A DNA stretch of 64,000 nucleotides, taken from NCBI RefSeq assembly GCF_046105845.1, contig NZ_CP151004.1; one strand, written 5' to 3'. Shown here piece after piece: positions 2,950 to 61,718 of the stretch. Source of the DNA: Escherichia coli. Lineage in GTDB: Bacteria > Pseudomonadota > Gammaproteobacteria > Enterobacterales > Enterobacteriaceae. A program made the position numbers and the translations under genes. The notes beneath the pieces were generated by a model. That model ran no database searches. It was not told the DNA's origin and saw nothing but the letters and a program-made list of their open reading frames with translations. Numbering within the stretch: position 1 is the stretch's first letter; each line of letters opens with the position of its first letter.

Positions 2950-3938
2950 TCTTTGTCCTCTGCTTTCATTAAAACGGCGCGCTCGGTTCTGACTAACAAT
3001 TTTCCCTGCATCAGAAGCGCAAAAGTACGGATGAGCAGTATTGCAATAATAAAATTGGTAAAGATAAACAGCGGCACCGCCAGCGTATGGAAAAATCCAT
3101 TATCGCTGCCACTCCCCAGATGCAAACCGGTGGTTGCCAGTGCAGATACGCCGAACGAGAAACTCCAGAATGAAGCATTAAATGGCTGGGAGAGATACCA
3201 TGGCATCAGACGTAGCATAAACAGCAGTTGCAGCAGTCCATAACCGAAAAGCATTTTCGCCAGCGTGTCACCCTCGCCGCCGTTGACGCTCAGCCAGGCA
3301 CTACAGGCCACCAGCGCAGGAGCGAGCTGAATGCCGAGTGATGTCCGCAGCGCCGTGGGTAATTCTCCCGAACTGCGCAGACGCTGCAAGATCACCGGTT
3401 CAAGGCTTAGCCATGAGAAAACGCCTGCGCCTAAAAACACCAGACCGGCGTCGGTGTAGCCCAACGCACCACAGGCCATTGCGCTGATAAAGTTGTTGGC
3501 AACTGTCGGCAGATACAGTCCAGGCGTGGTAGCTTCTTCAGGATGAGATCCGCGCCATAATCCCGCAGTTTGCCAGGCGGCATAAGCCAACTGTACAACG
3601 ACACCAAAACTGAACAGGCATACCGCCAGTGGGCGAAACCACGGAACAAAACCAATCGCCACCAGCATCGTCGTTGCCGGAAACAAACTCACAAAACTGC
3701 TCAGCACTGGATGGCGAACTTCCGCCAGCACGCTATGCGGAAAGCGTATGAGTCGGGTAATAAATGCGCTAGTCAATAATCCCCAGATGATCATCGCCAG
3801 AATCACCAGCCCATCCCCTAACCAGTGGCTGACCTGCCAAACCTGGCTGGCATAGCGCCAGGCAAATCCCATCCCTATCGTCCCCAACACAATACCAAAG
3901 TAGCCTGCCGGCAAATTGAGCACTTTATCGCTCTGCAT
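2946..3938 (-). CDS. tehA: Tellurite resistance / dicarboxylate-transporter-family membrane protein TehA
   Basis: ORF track gives 366 aa; remembered TehA start [15 protein letters not shown] corresponds to ATG at 3938 (330 aa). Confidence 0.9.
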
Positions 3939-4061: not shown

Positions 4062-5042
4062 ATGCGCAAATATCGTCTAAGTGAAGAACAGCGAGCCTTT
4101 AGTTATCAGGAAGATGGCACTAAAAAAAGTGTGTTATTACGGCAAATTATCGCCATTAGCGATTTTAACGATGTGATAGCAGGAACCGCTGGCGGCTGGA
4201 TCGATCGCGAAACGGTGTTAGCACAGGAAGGAAATTGCTGGATTTACGACCAGAATGCTATTGCGTTCGGCGGAACGGTGATATCCGGGAATACGCGTAT
4301 CACCGGCACCAGCGTGCTGTGGGGAGAGGTTTACGCAACGGATAATGTCTGGATCGATAATAGTGAAATCAGCCAGGGTGCATATATAAGTGACAGTGTC
4401 ACCATTAGTGACTCATTAGTTTGCGGTCAATGTAGAATATTTGGTCACGCCTTAATTGATCAACATTCTATGATCGTCGCCGCACAAGGCTTAACGCCCG
4501 ACCATCAACTCCTGCTACAAATTTATGATCGCGCGAGGGTTAGCGCCTCGCGTATTGTCCACCAGGCACAAATTTATGGCGATGCCGTCGTCCGGTATGC
4601 TTTTATTGAACATCGCGCCGAAGTTTTTGATTTTGCCAGTATTGAAGGTAATGAAGAGAACAACGTCTGGCTATGCGATTGCGCTAAAGTTTACGGTCAC
4701 GCGCAGGTGAAAGCTGGCATAGAAGAAGATGCCATTCCGACGATTCATTACAGTTCACAGGTGGCGGAATATGCCATTGTGGAAGGTAATTGTGTGTTAA
4801 AACATCATGTCTTGATTGGCGGAAATGCCGTGGTATGTGGCGGACCGATTCTGCTCGACGAGCACGTTGTCATACAAGGTGAGAGCCGTATTACAGGTGC
4901 GGTGATAATTGAAAACCATGTGGAGTTAACCGACCACGCCGTCGTTGAAGCCTTTGATGGCGACACGGTTCATGTCCGTGGCCCAAAAGTCATTAACGGC
5001 GAGGAGCGCATTACGCGAACGCCGCTGGCAGGGTTATTGTGA
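4062..5042 (+). CDS. ydcK: Uncharacterized hexapeptide-repeat protein YdcK
   Basis: 326-aa ORF, repetitive left-handed beta-helix-like sequence; K-12 synteny. Confidence 0.85.
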
Positions 5043-5573
5043 ATCGATAATACGCGCGTATAAGTTCACATCATCATAGGCATCATTCAGGAACTCAGCC
5101 TGTTTCAGACAACCTTCAAGGATAAAACCATTGCGCAAAGCGACTTGGTTGCTTTGCGCATTGTCCACCCGACATTTGATCACGAAGCGTCTAAGTTCAC
5201 CAGACTGAGCGTAATGATGAATCAATGCCTTCAGCGCCTGAGAAATGATCCCCTGCCCCTGATGAGATTCGTCCAGCCAGTAGCCGATTTCAGCGGTTTT
5301 ATTCAGTGGTTCAATACGATTAAACGAGATAACGCCGATAAGTTCATCTTCTTTGAAAATCATGAACATTTTGGCATAGCCGCGTTGATGCAACATCACA
5401 TTACCCTGCACCGTTTTTCGCGTGTCCTCTTCACTCTGAACAAACTGCGGCCAGTTTAGCGACTGCTGTAACCAGGTTTTATTTTTACAGATTAACTGAT
5501 AAAGAGGTATGACATGACTTTCTGCAACAGCATGTAATTCAAGTGATTCACTTACTTTTATCGTTTCAGTCAT
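5034..5573 (-). CDS. rimL: Ribosomal-protein-L7/L12 serine N-acetyltransferase RimL
   Basis: GNAT-family ORF; start trimmed to [10 protein letters not shown] (179 aa); 3' end overlaps ydcK 3' end by 9 bp. Confidence 0.88.
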
Positions 5574-12107: not shown

Positions 12108-12334
12108 CGACCAAAAACCTCTTTGCGTCACATTTTTACAACAATTATGGCAGAGAAGATTAATGCCATTGGAATGAAGAGAGTAACGAATGATTAAACT
12201 GGCTAAACCGAATGACGAAAAATTCTGGAAAACAGCACGCAATTTCGTCAGGTGATTATTTTCGTCCCTAAGGAAACCACATAGGATGCTCACGGGTGCC
12301 TGAGACTTTCTGTTTTCAGGCTAACCGGGAATCA

Positions 12335-12381
12335 GAAAGACGAAGGCCCCGACCGATATTTCTATCAACCGAGGCCAACGA

Positions 12382-12395
<14 letters not shown>
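12335..12395 (-). ncRNA. sokB: Approximate position of SokB antisense RNA (antitoxin of hokB), inferred by locus architecture only
   Basis: hok/sok loci encode Sok antisense to the mok translation-initiation region; boundaries not determinable by eye. Confidence 0.3.
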
Positions 12396-12589
<194 letters not shown>

Positions 12590-12653
12590 GGGCAAGCGCG
12601 GGGATTTTCCCCGCGCATCTGACTAGCGGATTCATTTTCTCATGGCACCCCTT

Positions 12654-13003: not shown

Positions 13004-13068
13004 CTTCCGATGTAGGCCCGTATTCTTCGCCTGTACCACGGGTCGGTTTTAGTACAGGCGTTTTCTTT
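13004..13068 (+). ncRNA. rydC: RydC small regulatory RNA (Hfq-dependent)
   Basis: cttccgatgtaggcccgtattcttcgcctgtaccacgggtcggttttagtacaggcgttttctt matches remembered RydC sequence nearly base-for-base; located between ydcA and cybB as in K-12. Confidence 0.85.
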
Positions 13069-22256: not shown

Positions 22257-22270
22257 CCGGACACGGTCTT

Positions 22271-22300
22271 GATGTGGACTGTAGATATTCAGTCCACATC
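22271..22300. terminator. Bidirectional hairpin between convergent azoR and ydbC (gatgtggactg-N8-cagtccacatc)
   Basis: 11-bp perfect inverted repeat in the 113-bp intergenic region. Confidence 0.6.
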
Positions 22301-22369
22301 TTAATCCGCTTACCTGTTTTCTATCGCTTTGTGCTCTTCCTTAAGCACAATCTGCGAGCGCCTGACTCG

Positions 22370-23460: not shown

Positions 23461-24051
23461 TTACTGTTTCGGTCGCAGATTCTCATCAAATACCAGGCGT
23501 TTCCTGCCAGGTTCAACTTCCCGCAATGGCTCGACTTGATGTAACGTCTGCTTACAGCGTGTCACCAGCACCTGGTACTCATGCGTACCCTGCTTTTTCC
23601 ATGCCAACTCCTGCTCACTGAGTTCACGAATCGCTTTCGCCGGGCTGCCGACAATCAGGTAATTAGCTGGCATTTCTGCTTTGGCTTTCACAAATGCGGA
23701 TGCGCCAACAATGCTGTTCTCGCCAATCACCGCACCGTCTATCACTACCGCGTTCATTCCCACTAATGCATTGCGGCGGATAATGCAGCCGTGAAGGATA
23801 GCGCTATGACCAATATGTCCATCTTCTTCCACGACAGTATCCTGCTCGGGAAAACCGTGCATAACGCAATTATCCTGAATGTTCGCGCCATTTTTCACCA
23901 CGATACGATCAAAATCGCCACGCAGGCTGGCATTTGGCCCAACGTAAACGCCCTTGCCGAGAATAACATCGCCGATCAATACCGCTGTCGGATGAACAAA
24001 ACTCTCTTGTGGTACAACCGGAGTCAGACCGTCTATCTGATAAATTGGCAT
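23461..24051 (-). CDS. paaY: PaaY-like hexapeptide-repeat acyltransferase/thioesterase, intact but lacking the rest of the paa cluster
   Basis: 196-aa [37 protein letters not shown]... with left-handed beta-helix repeats; matches PaaY. Confidence 0.85.
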
Positions 24052-24158
24052 AACGCCTCCTGTTCAATATTCAAGCCGCCAAAACGTTGAAAATACAGGC
24101 TTCCCGGCGCAGGCAATTCACCGACCGAGGTTTCACCTTTTTCACTAACGAACGCTAA
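24033..24158 (-). pseudogene. paaX: 3'-terminal remnant of paaX (about 40 C-terminal codons), 5' part deleted
   Basis: Minus-strand frame ends 19 nt inside paaY as expected for paaX; N-terminal part of the 97-aa ORF is antisense to the feaR remnant, so only about 24033-24158 is likely paaX-derived; junction position approximate. Confidence 0.45.
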
Positions 24159-24392
24159 AGCAGCAGGCGCTACGCGCTGATAAAGTTTGCCGATAAAGGT
24201 TTGGTAGTCGCGCAATATATCCGTAACCGTCGTCTCGATTTTTGTGCAGATGCGATTCGCCATGCCGCAGATGATGAAAAACTGGCAGGCATTGGCTTTC
24301 ATTGGGGATTTTCCGACCAGAGTCATTTTTCAACGGTATTTAAGCAACGCTTTGGGATGACGCCAGGCGAGTATCGACGTAAATTCCGCTAA
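24159..24392 (+). pseudogene. feaR: 3'-terminal remnant of feaR (AraC-family C-terminal HTH region), 5' part deleted
   Basis: Plus frame ...YALIKFADKGLVVAQYIRNRRLDFCADAIRHAADDEKLAGIGFHWGFSDQSHFSTVFKQRFGMTPGEYRRKFR* is a typical AraC/XylS second HTH; in-frame stop at 24156-24158; convergent with ydbL as feaR is in K-12. Confidence 0.5.
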
Positions 24393-24428
24393 CTAATTCG
24401 CGTTGCATGTACAGCAACGCGAATTAGT
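24391..24428. terminator. Perfect 16-bp inverted repeat (aactaattcgcgttgc-atgtac-gcaacgcgaattagtt) between feaR remnant and ydbL
   Basis: Seen directly; lies at the convergent 3' ends; no strong T-run, so could be a bidirectional terminator or a protein-binding palindrome. Confidence 0.5.
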
Positions 24429-24563
24429 TAAAACAGATATTTGACTATGCATTTTTCAGGGCGAAAGGCAATTTGACAGGAATTTTTGAATATTCACCTT
24501 GTTTCCGGAAAATAGAATAATCGCCTTCTCCTGTAGCGTTATCCCGATATTGCGGTTTTGCTA

Positions 24564-29026: not shown

Positions 29027-29449
29027 ATGAAGAAAGTAGCCGCGCTCGTTGCGCTAAGCCTGCTGATGGCGGGATGTGTAAGTAATGACAAAATTGCTGT
29101 AACCCCAGAGCAGCTACAGCATCATCGCTTTGTGCTGGAAAGCGTAAACGGTAAGCCCGTGACCAGCGATAAAAATCCGCCAGAAATCAGCTTTGGTGAA
29201 AAGATGATGATTTCCGGCAGCATGTGTAACCGCTTTAGCGGTGAAGGCAAACTGTCTAATGGTGAACTGACAGCCAAAGGGCTGGCAATGACCCGTATGA
29301 TGTGCGCTAACCCGCAGCTTAATGAACTCGATAACACCATTAGCGAAATGCTGAAAGAAGGTGCACAAGTGGATCTGACCGCGAACCAGTTAACGCTGGC
29401 GACCGCGAAACAGACATTAACTTATAAGCTAGCGGATTTAATGAATTAA
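29027..29449 (+). CDS. hslJ: Heat-shock lipoprotein HslJ (META domain)
   Basis: Start trimmed to MKKVAALVALSLLMAGCVSN (lipobox), 140 aa. Confidence 0.9.
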   Translation: MKKVAALVALSLLMAGCVSNDKIAVTPEQLQHHRFVLESVNGKPVTSDKNPPEISFGEKMMISGSMCNRFSGEGKLSNGELTAKGLAMTRMMCANPQLNELDNTISEMLKEGAQVDLTANQLTLATAKQTLTYKLADLMN

Positions 29450-29712
29450 TAGCTGCCACAGCTCCCGGCGGCAAGTGACTGTTCGCTACAGCGTTTGCCG
29501 TTGGGTAATGCACACATCCCAATCGCCGTACCATCCAGTTGACGGGCAACAGAAAGCGAACCGCCGATCATTGCACAATTTGCTTCTCCACTACTGGACA
29601 TCGACGCTTTTAAACCTGGCGCTACGTGCGCCGCAGTCGCCTGCTGAACAGGTTCACTACTACACGCCGACAACAATAAAGCGGCACACCCTACCCAAAA
29701 CGCTGCTCGCAT
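29446..29712 (-). CDS. ydbJ: DUF333-family small secreted protein YdbJ
   Basis: 88-aa ORF with signal peptide/lipobox (LLSACSS); K-12 synteny. Confidence 0.8.
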   Translation of the reverse strand: MRAAFWVGCAALLLSACSSEPVQQATAAHVAPGLKASMSSSGEANCAMIGGSLSVARQLDGTAIGMCALPNGKRCSEQSLAAGSCGSY

Positions 29713-33510: not shown

Positions 33511-33538
33511 ATGCACTGGATAAGGATTATCCAATTCT

Positions 33539-33648
33539 AAAAAAAAGCCCGGACGACTGTTCGGGCTTGTCTTTTTATATGTTGGAAAATCAGTGCCAAT
33601 GCAATGGCCCAACAGAAAATAAAATCTGTGACAATAAAGGCATATAAC
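33539..33648 (-). ncRNA. micC: MicC small RNA (Hfq-dependent repressor of ompC/ompD)
   Basis: Reverse complement GTTATATGCCTTTATTGTCACAGATTTTATTTTCTGTTGGGCCATTGCATTGGCACTGATTTTCCAACATATAAAAAGACAAGCCCGAACAGTCGTCCGGGCTTTTTTTT matches remembered MicC including terminator; divergent from ompN as in K-12. Confidence 0.9.
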
Positions 33649-33875
33649 CCGCGCAGAATAACGTATAGCAAATTAAAAGTATAATTTTTATTTTGTATGT
33701 ATTATCTTCGATACATTCACCAGACTTATTATCATTTCAGAGGAATTATTTGATTAAGGTTTTACTTAAGGCGTAACAAATGATATTTATCGGCTAACTG
33801 TACTTCTCCTTTAGGATGTTTTCACTCCCCGAAATGGGGATAAAAGGCAAATAAAATAACTAAAGGATTTATTCA

Positions 33876-36680: not shown

Positions 36681-36682
36681 CC

Positions 36683-36771
36683 CGGATAGCGCCCGATGCG
36701 CAAGCGTATCGGGCTACTCTTATGGAGGCCGGATAAGACGCGGCCAGCGTCGCATCCGGCAATCCCGAAGA
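36683..36771. repeat. REP/BIME element (pair of REP palindromes) between ttcA and dbpA
   Basis: gccggataagacgcggccagcgtcgcatccggcaat and flanking cccggatagcgcccgatgcgcaagcgtatcgggc are classic enterobacterial REP sequences. Confidence 0.7.
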
Positions 36772-36808
36772 AGATGTTGACTCTTGCACCCTGCGATTCA
36801 ACATTTCA

Positions 36809-38442: not shown

Positions 38443-38564
38443 AAAAAAAAGCCGACTCATCAAAGTCGGCGTCGTACGAATCAATTGTGCTATGCAGTAA
38501 TTCAAAAAAGGAAGTAAGACAATATGGAGCGCAACGCCCATCGCTTGACGTTGCATTCACCTGC
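38443..38564 (-). ncRNA. fnrS: FnrS small RNA (FNR-activated, Hfq-dependent)
   Basis: Reverse complement begins GCAGGTGAATGCAACGTCAAGCGATGGGCGTTGCGCTCCATATTGTCTTACTTCC and ends in GC hairpin + T8, matching remembered FnrS; between zntB and dbpA. Confidence 0.9.
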
Positions 38565-45430: not shown

Positions 45431-45524
45431 ACCGGTCACCAGGACCCCAGGCCGGATTTAAGACGAGGATGCACTGCTGTGTGTACTGTAGAGTCTGGCG
45501 GATGTCGACAGACTCTATTTTTTT
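45431..45524 (+). ncRNA. mcaS: McaS (IsrA) small RNA
   Basis: ...ggccggatttaagacgaggatgcactgctgtgtgtactgtagagtctggcggatgtcgacagactctattttttt matches remembered McaS 3' two-thirds and terminator; convergent with abgR as in K-12. Confidence 0.8.
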
Positions 45525-45532
45525 ATGCAGTT

Positions 45533-52559: not shown

Positions 52560-53510
52560 ATGGCTATGTATCAGAACATGCTCGTTGTTATCGATCCTAA
52601 CCAGGACGACCAACCAGCATTGCGGCGAGCTGTTTATTTACATCAACGGATTGGTGGCAAAATTAAAGCCTTTTTGCCGATCTATGACTTCTCATACGAA
52701 ATGACCACCCTGCTCTCTCCGGACGAACGTACCGCTATGCGTCAGGGCGTCATCAGCCAGCGTACAGCCTGGATCCACGAGCAGGCAAAATATTATCTCA
52801 ATGCTGGCGTTCCCATTGAAATTAAAGTGGTCTGGCATAACCGTCCTTTCGAAGCCATCATTCAGGAAGTGATCAGCGGCGGGCACGATTTGGTGCTAAA
52901 AATGGCGCACCAACATGACCGTCTGGAAGCGGTGATTTTTACGCCAACGGACTGGCATCTGTTACGCAAATGCCCAAGCCCGGTGTGGATGGTGAAAGAC
53001 CAGCCGTGGCCGGAAGGGGGTAAGGCGCTGGTGGCGGTGAATCTCGCCAGTGAAGAGCCGTATCATAATGCGCTCAATGAAAAACTGGTCAAAGAGACGA
53101 TCGAACTGGCGGAACAAGTCAACCATACCGAAGTTCATCTGGTTGGCGCTTATCCGGTAACGCCAATTAATATCGCGATTGAACTGCCGGAATTTGATCC
53201 GAGCGTTTATAACGATGCCATTCGTGGGCAACATTTGCTGGCAATGAAAGCCCTGCGGCAGAAATTCGGCATTAATGAAAACATGACGCACGTAGAAAAA
53301 GGTCTGCCAGAAGAGGTGATTCCTGATTTGGCGGAGCATTTACAGGCGGGGATTGTGGTTCTGGGCACGGTCGGACGCACCGGTATTTCAGCGGCATTCC
53401 TCGGCAACACGGCGGAACAGGTGATTGATCATCTTCGCTGCGACCTGCTGGTCATTAAACCTGACCAGTATCAGACACCCGTTGAACTGGATGACGAAGA
53501 AGACGATTAA
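52560..53510 (+). CDS. uspE: Tandem-domain universal stress protein UspE
   Basis: Start trimmed to [17 protein letters not shown] (316 aa). Confidence 0.9.
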
Positions 53511-53531
53511 CGACTCTTCAATAACTGACAA

Positions 53532-53557
53532 GGCCCGAGTTATCGGGCCTATTTTTT
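53532..53557 (+). terminator. Rho-independent terminator after uspE (ggcccga-gtta-tcgggcc + T6)
   Basis: 7-bp stem followed by TATTTTTT; also abuts ynaJ 3' end. Confidence 0.7.
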
Positions 53558-53559
53558 AC

Positions 53560-53817
53560 TTACTGCTCTTCGCCGCCAAGAAAATAAATTCCCAACGGGA
53601 TTGCCAGCAACACAGTAAAGACCAGGCTATAAACAAAAATCATCGATGACTGAATCACATACATTGATGTCGTCCACTCAGACAGCGGAATATTGTACTG
53701 TTCTATAACGCCGCCGATGGTCGCGCGAGTCACAACCGACGCCGCAATAATGAAAACCGCCAACAAACCAAAGAGAAATTTCTTCCCTTTCGCTGACTTC
53801 AGTTTCGCCATAATCAT
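53560..53817 (-). CDS. ynaJ: Small inner-membrane protein YnaJ (DUF2534)
   Basis: 85-aa ORF with two predicted TM helices; K-12 synteny. Confidence 0.82.
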   Translation of the reverse strand: MIMAKLKSAKGKKFLFGLLAVFIIAASVVTRATIGGVIEQYNIPLSEWTTSMYVIQSSMIFVYSLVFTVLLAIPLGIYFLGGEEQ

Positions 53818-59120: not shown

Positions 59121-59759
59121 ATGAAAAATGTACTGATTCTTGGTGCTGGCGGTCAGATAGCCCGCCATGTGATTAATCAACTGGCAGATAAACAAACCAT
59201 TAAACAAACTTTATTTGCCCGTCAGCCAGCAAAAATCCACAAACCCTATCCAACTAATAGCAAGATTATTATGGGGGATGTACTGAATCATGCAACACTG
59301 AAGCAGGCCATACAGGGACAGGATGTTGTGTATGCCAACCTTACGGGGGAAGATTTAGATATTCAGGCAAATTCAGTGATCGCTGCGATGAAAGCCTGTG
59401 ATGTTAAACGTCTGATCTTTGTTCTTTCCCTCGGTATTTATGATGAAGTTCCAGGAAAATTTGGCGAATGGAATAATGCAGTTATTGGTGAACCCCTAAA
59501 ACCATTCCGCAGGGCTGCGGATGCAATTGAGGCTTCTGGACTGGAATATACAATTCTTCGCCCTGCCTGGCTGACCGATGAAGATATTATTGATTATGAG
59601 CTTACCTCACGCAATGAACCATTCAAAGGTACGATCGTATCACGTAAGAGTGTCGCAGCATTAATTACAGATATCATCGATAAACCTGAGAAACACATTG
59701 GTGAGAATATAGGCATCAATCAACCCGGGACTGATGGTGATAAGCCATTCTTCATGTAA
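59121..59759 (+). CDS. ymjC: NAD(P)-binding Rossmann-fold protein (NmrA/atypical SDR-like), intact 212 aa; corresponds to the ymjC/ymjD locus
   Basis: N-terminal GAGGQIARH dinucleotide-binding motif; single uninterrupted ORF between ycjY and mpaA. Confidence 0.7.
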   Translation: MKNVLILGAGGQIARHVINQLADKQTIKQTLFARQPAKIHKPYPTNSKIIMGDVLNHATLKQAIQGQDVVYANLTGEDLDIQANSVIAAMKACDVKRLIFVLSLGIYDEVPGKFGEWNNAVIGEPLKPFRRAADAIEASGLEYTILRPAWLTDEDIIDYELTSRNEPFKGTIVSRKSVAALITDIIDKPEKHIGENIGINQPGTDGDKPFFM

Positions 59760-60049: not shown

Positions 60050-60778
60050 ATGACCGTAACTCGCCCACGCGCCGAACGCGGCGCATTTCCGCCCGGAACA
60101 GAACATTACGGACGTTCATTATTGGGCGCGCCGTTAATCTGGTTTCCGGCCCCTGCAGCCAGTCACGAAAGTGGTTTGATTCTGGCTGGCACTCACGGTG
60201 ATGAAAACTCTTCGATCGTCACGCTCTCCTGTGCTCTGCGGACGTTGACACCTTCTTTGCGCCGTCATCATGTGGTGCTGTGTGTGAATCCTGACGGCTG
60301 CCAGTTGGGGTTAAGGGCCAATGCTAATGGTGTGGATTTAAACAGAAACTTTCCGGCGGCGAACTGGAAGGAAGGTGAAACCGTTTATCGCTGGAACAGC
60401 GCCGCTGAAGAACGTGATGTCGTATTGCTGACAGGTGACAAACCTGGCTCCGAACCTGAAACCCAGGCGCTGTGCCAGCTTATACACCGCATTCAACCTG
60501 CCTGGGTGGTCTCATTCCACGATCCGCTGGCCTGTATTGAAGATCCCAGACACAGCGAATTAGGCGAATGGCTGGCCCAGGCGTTTGAATTGCCTCTGGT
60601 AACCAGCGTCGGTTATGAAACACCTGGCTCTTTCGGTAGTTGGTGTGCGGATCTCAACCTACATTGCATCACCGCAGAGTTTCCCCCCATCTCCTCCGAC
60701 GAAGCCAGCGAAAAATATCTCTTTGCGATGGCAAACTTGCTGCGCTGGCATCCTAAAGATGCAATTCGCCCGTCGTGA
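60050..60778 (+). CDS. mpaA: Murein peptide amidase A (gamma-D-Glu-Dap amidase, M14 carboxypeptidase family)
   Basis: Start trimmed to MTVTRPRAERGAF (242 aa); zinc-ligand motif HGDEN. Confidence 0.85.
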   Translation: MTVTRPRAERGAFPPGTEHYGRSLLGAPLIWFPAPAASHESGLILAGTHGDENSSIVTLSCALRTLTPSLRRHHVVLCVNPDGCQLGLRANANGVDLNRNFPAANWKEGETVYRWNSAAEERDVVLLTGDKPGSEPETQALCQLIHRIQPAWVVSFHDPLACIEDPRHSELGEWLAQAFELPLVTSVGYETPGSFGSWCADLNLHCITAEFPPISSDEASEKYLFAMANLLRWHPKDAIRPS

Positions 60779-61718
60779 ACTGAAGCGCCGGTTCCACATC
60801 TACCGCCAGCCAGGTCGGTCCGTCAAGATCGGCGAAACTGACCTGCGGCACCAGCGGTAAAGCGGCGCTAATGGCACGAGAGGTACACAACATGCAGCCC
60901 AGCATCAGACTAAAACCTTGTGCACGTGCTTCAGTCGCCAGCGCCAGCGCTTCCGTCAGGCCACCCGTTTTATCGAGCTTAATGTTAACCATCTCATAGC
61001 GCCCTTTCAGCGCCTTCAGATTGCTACGAGTATGACAACTTTCATCTGCACAAATCGGTAACGGATGAATAAAATTCTCCAGTGCCGCATCGTCCTGCGC
61101 AGGGAGCGGTTGTTCAAGCATCGCAACGCCTAAATCCGCCAATAGCTGGCAACGCGCCGCCAACCCTTCTGCACGCCAGGATTCATTTGCGTCAACGATC
61201 AGCGTCGCATCGGGCACAGCTGTGCGAATTGCCACCATCCGCTCACTGATAAGATGGTTATCCAGCTTCACTTTCAGTAATTTCGCGCCTGCCTGCCAGA
61301 GTGTTGATGCACCATTGGCCATCTGATCAGGCGTACCGATGACTACCGTCTGGGCAGTGGTAACTATCTCGGGAAGCGTTACGCCAATCAAATCAGCCAG
61401 CGATTGCTGCTGTTTTCGCGCCGCCAGATCCCACAATGCACAATCCAGCGCATTACGTGCTGCGCCGGCAGGGAGAATTTTTTGCAACTCCTCCCGTGTC
61501 AGCCCTTTCTCTATTTGCGGCACGACGCTCATAATTTGCGCCATTACCGAGGCATCACTTTCTCCATAGCGCGGATACGGCGTGCATTCACCGGTGCCTT
61601 TAATACCCTCTTCTTCCAGTTCAACCACCACCACGCGCGCTTCACTGCGACTTCCCCGAGCAATCACAAACGGGGTATGTAAGGGCCAGGCTTCCTCAAA
61701 TACCTTAACGGTTCTCAT
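60753..61718 (-). CDS. ycjG: L-Ala-D/L-Glu epimerase YcjG (enolase superfamily)
   Basis: Start trimmed to MRTVKVFEEAWPLHTPF (321 aa); 3' end overlaps mpaA 3' end. Confidence 0.85.
   Translation of the reverse strand: MRTVKVFEEAWPLHTPFVIARGSRSEARVVVVELEEEGIKGTGECTPYPRYGESDASVMAQIMSVVPQIEKGLTREELQKILPAGAARNALDCALWDLAARKQQQSLADLIGVTLPEIVTTAQTVVIGTPDQMANGASTLWQAGAKLLKVKLDNHLISERMVAIRTAVPDATLIVDANESWRAEGLAARCQLLADLGVAMLEQPLPAQDDAALENFIHPLPICADESCHTRSNLKALKGRYEMVNIKLDKTGGLTEALALATEARAQGFSLMLGCMLCTSRAISAALPLVPQVSFADLDGPTWLAVDVEPALQFTTGELHL

Follow-up and report, generated by a model that had tools for sequence, protein, structure and literature searches.

Convergent 3'-end overlaps of ydcK/rimL and mpaA/ycjG in Escherichia coli: geometry, conservation, and termination of transcription

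Two convergent gene pairs, ydcK/rimL and mpaA/ycjG, run into each other at their 3' ends in a 64-kb stretch of Escherichia coli DNA (here called the window). This raises the question of whether such overlaps are genuine, how they arose and persisted, and what happens to transcription that reaches a stop codon lying inside the neighboring gene.

Overlap geometry and the four reading frames

The ydcK coding sequence (4062-5042, + strand) specifies a 326-aa YdcK family left-handed beta-helix protein and ends in a TGA at 5040-5042. Facing it, rimL (5034-5573, - strand) encodes the 179-aa ribosomal protein L7/L12-serine acetyltransferase, with a TAA stop at 5034-5036; both genes are annotated in RefSeq. 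From the open reading frame (ORF) listing and the sequence, the two share 9 bp on both strands (5034-5042), and within this segment their codons are in register (TTA TTG TGA on the + strand and TCA CAA TAA on the - strand). In the second pair, mpaA (60050-60778, + strand; 242-aa murein tripeptide amidase; stop TGA at 60776-60778) and ycjG (60753-61718, - strand; 321-aa L-Ala-D/L-Glu epimerase; stop TAG at 60753-60755) share 26 bp on both strands (60753-60778), with frames offset by 2. Both pairs are therefore convergent overlapping genes, located on opposite strands with each stop codon inside the partner gene. The sequence-only reading of the window had put these overlaps at 9 bp and about 26 bp; the first figure is borne out by the ORF listing, the sequence and RefSeq, and the second is exactly 26 bp.

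If one stop per pair had been miscalled, the genes would not truly overlap and the arrangement would be an annotation artifact. The protein evidence leaves this reading with next to no probability. NCBIfam equivalog models cover YdcK (NF040481, match 1-326/326), RimL (NF007539, 1-179/179) and YcjG (NF011708, 1-321/321) over their full lengths, and the MpaA model (NF007897) is matched at 1-236 of its 237 positions, so that MpaA residues beyond 236 exceed the model; the matches for all four proteins are well over the cutoff. A solved structure is available for each of the four proteins or a close relative. The YcjG structure (PDB 1JPD) has coverage up to residue 321, and the chain of crystallized E. 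coli MpaA (PDB 5HXD) comprises residues 1-237 only. Because of these full-length family matches and structures, the four reading frames are secure; the stops follow from the frames, and re-annotation therefore cannot abolish either overlap. Consistent with this, identical 9-bp and 26-bp overlaps are present in the RefSeq annotation of strains A10, N3, MEW and K-12 MG1655. Protein lengths also are conserved in other genera, and we found nothing in favor of a miscalled stop; the artifact reading was rejected.

More than 5,400 complete E. coli genomes contain matches of 95 to 99% identity to stretches of 1.7 to 1.9 kb, one per junction, the best match being about 98.9%. None of the complete E. 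coli genomes compared reached 99% identity at either end of the window (best, about 98.5 to 99.0%). The lineage of the source strain appears to be poorly represented among the complete genomes compared.

Several features of gene content were noted along the window. An intact ORF for an SDR-family oxidoreductase lies at 59133-59759, between ycjY and mpaA; in K-12 this position is taken up by two short annotated ORFs alone, ymjC and ymjD, which apparently are remnants of such a gene. azoR is followed directly by pdxI (22257-22369); the window lacks the ynbA-ynbB-ynbC-ynbD-ydbD block of about 7 kb that sits between these two genes in strain MEW and the other genomes that match best. At 23461-24563, paaY is the only paa (phenylacetate) gene mapped upstream of ydbL. 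The gap between ttcA and dbpA is just 128 bp (36681-36808), which leaves no room for a prophage there.

Frequency, conservation and drift of the overlaps

To place the two overlaps in context, the annotation of a close genome was transferred onto the window, which yielded 14 convergent gene pairs. The gaps between their members are 34, -9, 37, -23, 41, 113, -4, 128, 20, 172, 49, 50, -26 and 43 bp; that is, 4 of the 14 pairs overlap. The sequence-only reading had listed two overlapping pairs; both are real, and it had left out the other two. One of these is hslJ (29027-29449, + strand) and ydbJ (29446-29712, - strand), which share the 4 bp TTAA at 29446-29449 with their two stop codons interlocked. 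The other is hokB (12440-12589, + strand) and yncP (12567-12635, - strand), which share 23 bp at 12567-12589; yncP is an annotated ORF of 22 aa. A match to the Rfam sok model was seen near hokB, at 12294-12445 on the + strand.

Arrangements of this kind are well known. In E. coli K-12, 663 adjacent pairs overlap, 75 of them convergently (Huvet and Stumpf 2014, PMC4161906). The pairs in the window are among these 75 and show no material difference from the prokaryotic convergent overlaps surveyed there: they are real opposite-strand genes with nested stops and a short overlap, for which that survey gives stop-codon movement as the origin and an evolutionary stability greater than that of ordinary neighbors. 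As a null expectation for length, we read antisense from the 3' end into 51 genes of the window, in all three frames, until the first stop. The median distance to a stop was 47 nt, and 9 nt and 26 nt fell at the 15th and 31st percentiles. Neither overlap length is beyond chance expectation for genes that abut without a spacer. Both overlaps are ordinary and already known, being annotated in E. coli references.

Conservation was assessed by scanning species-representative genomes once with a fused YdcK-YcjG query. This returned 6 ydcK loci, all from Escherichia species, and 74 ycjG loci spanning the Enterobacteriaceae and Erwiniaceae. Among the protein matches listed, the ydcK/rimL comparison covered Escherichia, Citrobacter and Salmonella. 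All six Escherichia species have a 9-bp overlap, and their rimL stop is TAA or TAG. The same length is seen in two Citrobacter genomes, in which the RimL tail is different and two residues longer, and the overlap is 4 bp (TTAA) in Salmonella. Within one Salmonella enterica assembly (contig L085, 3478-4034), rimL is split into two ORFs of 70 and 95 aa and apparently is a pseudogene; another Salmonella contig with an identical YdcK protein has an intact rimL.

The mpaA/ycjG overlap was found in 71 of the 74 species across both families, with lengths from 4 to 49 bp. A 10-bp overlap is the commoner state (38 species, in Enterobacter, Klebsiella, Kosakonia, Raoultella, Kluyvera and others) and probably the older one. 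The 26-bp overlap occurs in 22 species (Escherichia, most Citrobacter, one Pantoea and one Erwinia). Rarer lengths are 19 bp (three species), 4 bp (three), 32 bp (two), and 33, 47 and 49 bp (one each), and in only three loci are the genes separated by a spacer, of 88, 312 or 331 bp. The presence of both overlaps in relatives means that neither is a strain-specific mutation or a sequencing error.

The YcjG C terminus (...FTTGxLHL) is conserved, whereas the MpaA tail varies between genera, reading ...LLRWQPQR in the group with the 10-bp overlap and ...LLRWHPKDAIRPS in E. coli. When the DNA was anchored on the ycjG stop, the sequence directly 5' of that stop was tggcatcCTA in E. coli and tggcagccTCA in E. 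cloacae. This 1-nt difference, just upstream of the overlap, carries the mpaA frame past the older TGA and on to a stop 16 nt beyond it, giving the 26-bp overlap. The MpaA tail appears to be dispensable or variable, given that the family model ends at position 237, that the 5HXD chain covers residues 1-237, and that the tails differ by genus. A separate change was seen in Citrobacter spp. (L019, L021 and L026, around 3480-3556), where CCTAAAG has become CCTTGAG. This removes the ycjG stop and makes an earlier mpaA stop; both gene ends shift by 21 nt, leaving 26 bp of overlap as before.

As a control, the neighboring convergent pair tpx/tyrR was measured in the same loci (66 species). Its members are separated by a spacer of 29 to 104 bp in 50 species, at least 398 bp has been inserted in 16, and they overlap in none. 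The abutment of mpaA and ycjG is therefore broken less often than the spacing of tpx and tyrR (71/74 versus 50/66 kept; Fisher P = 0.0009). Such rarity of breaks is expected under lock-in, in which an insertion between overlapping genes would destroy one of them; selection for coupling is a less probable reason. The contrast between the two pairs may reflect expression level.

Transcription termination beyond the stop codons

The sequence-only reading had argued that the overlaps leave no room for terminators. It is correct that there is no intergenic DNA at either junction. A consensus scan detected no intrinsic terminator, with a U-tract following its stem, within several hundred nucleotides downstream of any of the four stops. 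Promoter and terminator consensus scans around both junctions gave nothing near the overlaps, with site counts no higher than in shuffled sequences, and folds spanning the junctions were no better than shuffles (z = +0.57, -0.64 and +0.31). An Rfam scan of the whole window placed no RNA family near either overlap; the only hits were five known small RNAs elsewhere. At gathering score, these included RydC (13004-13067), MicC (33531-33651), FnrS (38447-38564) and McaS (45431-45526), the last of which occupies most of the 172-bp "gap" between an AraC-family gene and abgR.

Two structured stretches lie inside the partner genes. The first is an inverted repeat in rimL (5129-5163, both strands), about 90 nt past the ydcK stop, with a 13-bp stem of about -22 kcal/mol and z scores against shuffles of -3.25 (+ strand) and -2.47 (- strand). 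GGUUUUAUCC comes after it on the rimL sense strand, the only strand with a U-tract, which is weak and lies inside rimL's own ORF; the ydcK strand has no U-tract. The second is in ycjG, at about 60808-60848 (z = -2.8 for 60740-60880 on the + strand). These stretches could in principle be embedded intrinsic terminators, or bidirectional terminators of the collision type, that set precise 3' ends. Collision-driven bidirectional terminators between convergent genes were reportedly described by Ju et al. in 2019. Collision-driven termination at hairpins between convergent genes has been described in E. coli (Wang et al., bioRxiv 10.1101/2022.10.23.513370), and ExcludonFinder predicts overlapping terminators for 146 of 165 convergent excludons (PMC12288877). 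Together with the z scores, this is what speaks for such a reading.

Nevertheless, we consider it very unlikely that these hairpins act in this way. The rimL hairpin is found in E. coli strains and is lost in E. albertii, other Escherichia species, Salmonella and Citrobacter, and the ycjG stretch is not kept outside Escherichia; no compensatory changes were seen. As conserved terminators, both were rejected on these grounds, and the rimL hairpin probably has no role in termination. The ydcK strand lacks a U-tract at this hairpin, and the consensus scans find no terminator there. In the curated Term-seq tables, no 3' end is named in rimL, ydcK or ycjG, and judged by coordinates none maps close to either junction (PMC7815308). 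The collision-driven class shares the convergent arrangement with our pairs, but it is defined by a hairpin-forming intergenic 3'-end overlap and is Rho independent (bioRxiv 10.1101/2022.10.23.513370). At ydcK/rimL and mpaA/ycjG the genes are not separated by a spacer, a conserved hairpin is lacking, the structured stretches sit 30 to 90 nt away from where the 3' ends meet, inside the partner ORFs, and the termination that has been documented requires Rho (PMC7815308). The model collision-driven bidirectional terminator, ynaJ-uspE (bioRxiv 10.1101/2022.10.23.513370; PMC13082048), happens to be in the window; it has a 49-bp spacer (53511-53559) between uspE (52560-53510, + strand) and ynaJ (53560-53817, - strand).

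Absence of intergenic DNA does not imply absence of termination, and here the earlier argument does not hold: Rho termination regions are located inside the partner coding sequences. All of the transcript evidence comes from K-12, which is about 98 to 99% identical to this strain. Adams et al. (2021, PMC7815308, supplementary file 2) report a region at K-12 position 1499587 (+), antisense to ydcK (Rho score, 4.3; P = 1.5e-8), and another at 1390286 (+), antisense to mpaA (score, 3.9; P = 7e-5). These regions were defined by read-through on bicyclomycin in 800-nt windows, and their positions are consequently coarse. Using distances from K-12 gene coordinates and then mapping the points to the window, we placed the rimL-strand region at about 4900-4950 (mapped point, 4924; - strand), 110 nt past the rimL stop, and the ycjG-strand region at about 60340-60390 (mapped point, 60362; - strand), 391 nt past the ycjG stop. 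Both match the Rho-terminated antisense read-through of that study, in that the bicyclomycin-sensitive regions lie past the stops and inside the partners. They differ in being documented for one direction per pair only; for transcription from ydcK into rimL or from mpaA into ycjG, neither a Rho region nor a 3' end is reported (PMC7815308). Many neighboring convergent pairs have Rho regions too, for example, antisense to uspE, ynaI and ydcO (PMC7815308).

The base composition of the RNA was examined as well. Past three of the stops, those of ydcK, rimL and mpaA, the C/G ratio is 1.2 to 2.3, an excess of C over G that suits Rho-dependent termination. Beyond the ycjG stop, about 300 nt of G-rich RNA is followed by a stretch with C/G of 1.5 to 2.2, and 1.5 is exceeded only from about +320 nt. 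The late appearance of C-rich RNA fits the later Rho site on this strand, at about 391 nt. For the ydcK and mpaA strands, Rho-terminated antisense tails would be expected by analogy.

A further 3' end was noted at the other end of mpaA. A Term-seq 3' end at K-12 position 1390559 (-) (PMC7815308) lies 39 nt inside the mpaA ORF, corresponding to window position 60089 (+ strand), and adjoins the GC-rich hairpin GCGCCGAACGCGGCGC. It points to early termination or RNA processing just within mpaA.

Antisense 3' ends, interference and neutral drift

Because there is no intergenic DNA, an mRNA that reaches its own stop must share a complementary stretch of at least 9 or 26 nt with the mRNA of the partner. 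Of the two consequences that had been proposed from sequence, antisense 3' UTRs are confirmed in K-12 for the rimL and ycjG strands, by an excludon list (PMC12288877) and by the Rho regions (PMC7815308). The MG1655 ExcludonFinder map contains 165 convergent excludons, and all four overlapping pairs of the window are named in it (rimL-ydcK, ycjG-mpaA, ydbJ-hslJ and yncP-hokB), each in at least 50% of 58 RNA-seq data sets (PMC12288877). They have in common with that class the overlapping 3' transcript ends of opposite-strand neighbors.

The second proposed consequence, transcriptional interference, was inferred rather than observed, and it fits mpaA/ycjG poorly. It would follow if the pairs were functional convergent excludons, with selection keeping the complementary 3' ends because transcribing one gene represses the other, either by collision of polymerases or by RNase III cutting an RNA duplex, thereby tuning rimL against ydcK and mpaA against ycjG. 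Several observations are in keeping with this. Both pairs are on the MG1655 list, mpaA-ycjG-tpx is listed as a "noncontiguous operon," and excludon pairs as a class show more synteny and lower single-cell coexpression (PMC12288877). The mpaA/ycjG overlap also is kept in nearly all species of two families, while the close spacing of tpx/tyrR is kept less. However, an excludon call is near automatic for overlapping coding sequences once both genes are expressed, and it tells little about function. In addition, p19 capture of double-stranded RNA could not validate convergent excludons (PMC12288877).

The relationship between mpaA and ycjG also argues against mutual exclusion. mpaA is the last gene of ycjY-ymjDC-mpaA, and both it and ycjG are listed in the PgrR (peptidoglycan-recycling) regulon. 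Their products act on successive intermediates of murein-peptide recycling, and silencing one by expressing the other would be counterproductive. Excludons are defined by an antagonistic effect on expression, and by this comparison the two genes, in the same regulon and the same pathway, would seem not to be opposed. Finally, the length (4 to 49 bp), frame and sequence of the overlap drift freely, which argues against a sequence-specific device. On balance, functional excludons are an unlikely explanation. We regard as somewhat more unlikely still a cooperative version for mpaA/ycjG, in which the overlap is kept by selection and antisense pairing of the 3' ends balances or gates the two successive murein-tripeptide recycling enzymes. 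Were it true, the pair would be a conserved convergent coupling device, although one of only moderate interest.

The explanation that we favor, and consider quite probable, is neutral drift of stop codons followed by lock-in, with Rho-terminated antisense tails of little consequence. The paired genes abut without a spacer, and the origin of the overlap would be neutral: point changes in stop codons, or short indels at the extreme 3' ends, may push a stop a few codons into the partner. For mpaA, the 1-nt indel just 5' of the ycjG stop accounts for the 26-bp overlap and also for the short MpaA tail, which is poorly conserved; the sequence common to the two genes would be dictated by the C terminus of YcjG, which is conserved. 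Once formed, the overlap would persist, since an insertion would damage one gene or the other. RNA polymerase would run past each stop into the partner gene, making antisense RNA that is untranslated, and Rho would end this RNA within about 100 to 400 nt, leaving antisense 3' UTRs. The overlaps would then be neutral and of little regulatory consequence at the low expression that we assume for these genes.

Overlaps of this sort are textbook-type features of compact bacterial genomes and matter little, and their transcriptional consequences, overlapping 3' ends and Rho termination within the partner gene, already are catalogued for K-12. What is added here is modest. The abutment of mpaA and ycjG is old and very rarely lost, although the overlap changes in length; the 26-bp state of E. 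coli goes back to a single 1-nt frameshift; and the nearby tpx/tyrR pair provides a contrast, in which a spacer of 29 to 104 bp is kept in most species and no overlap forms.
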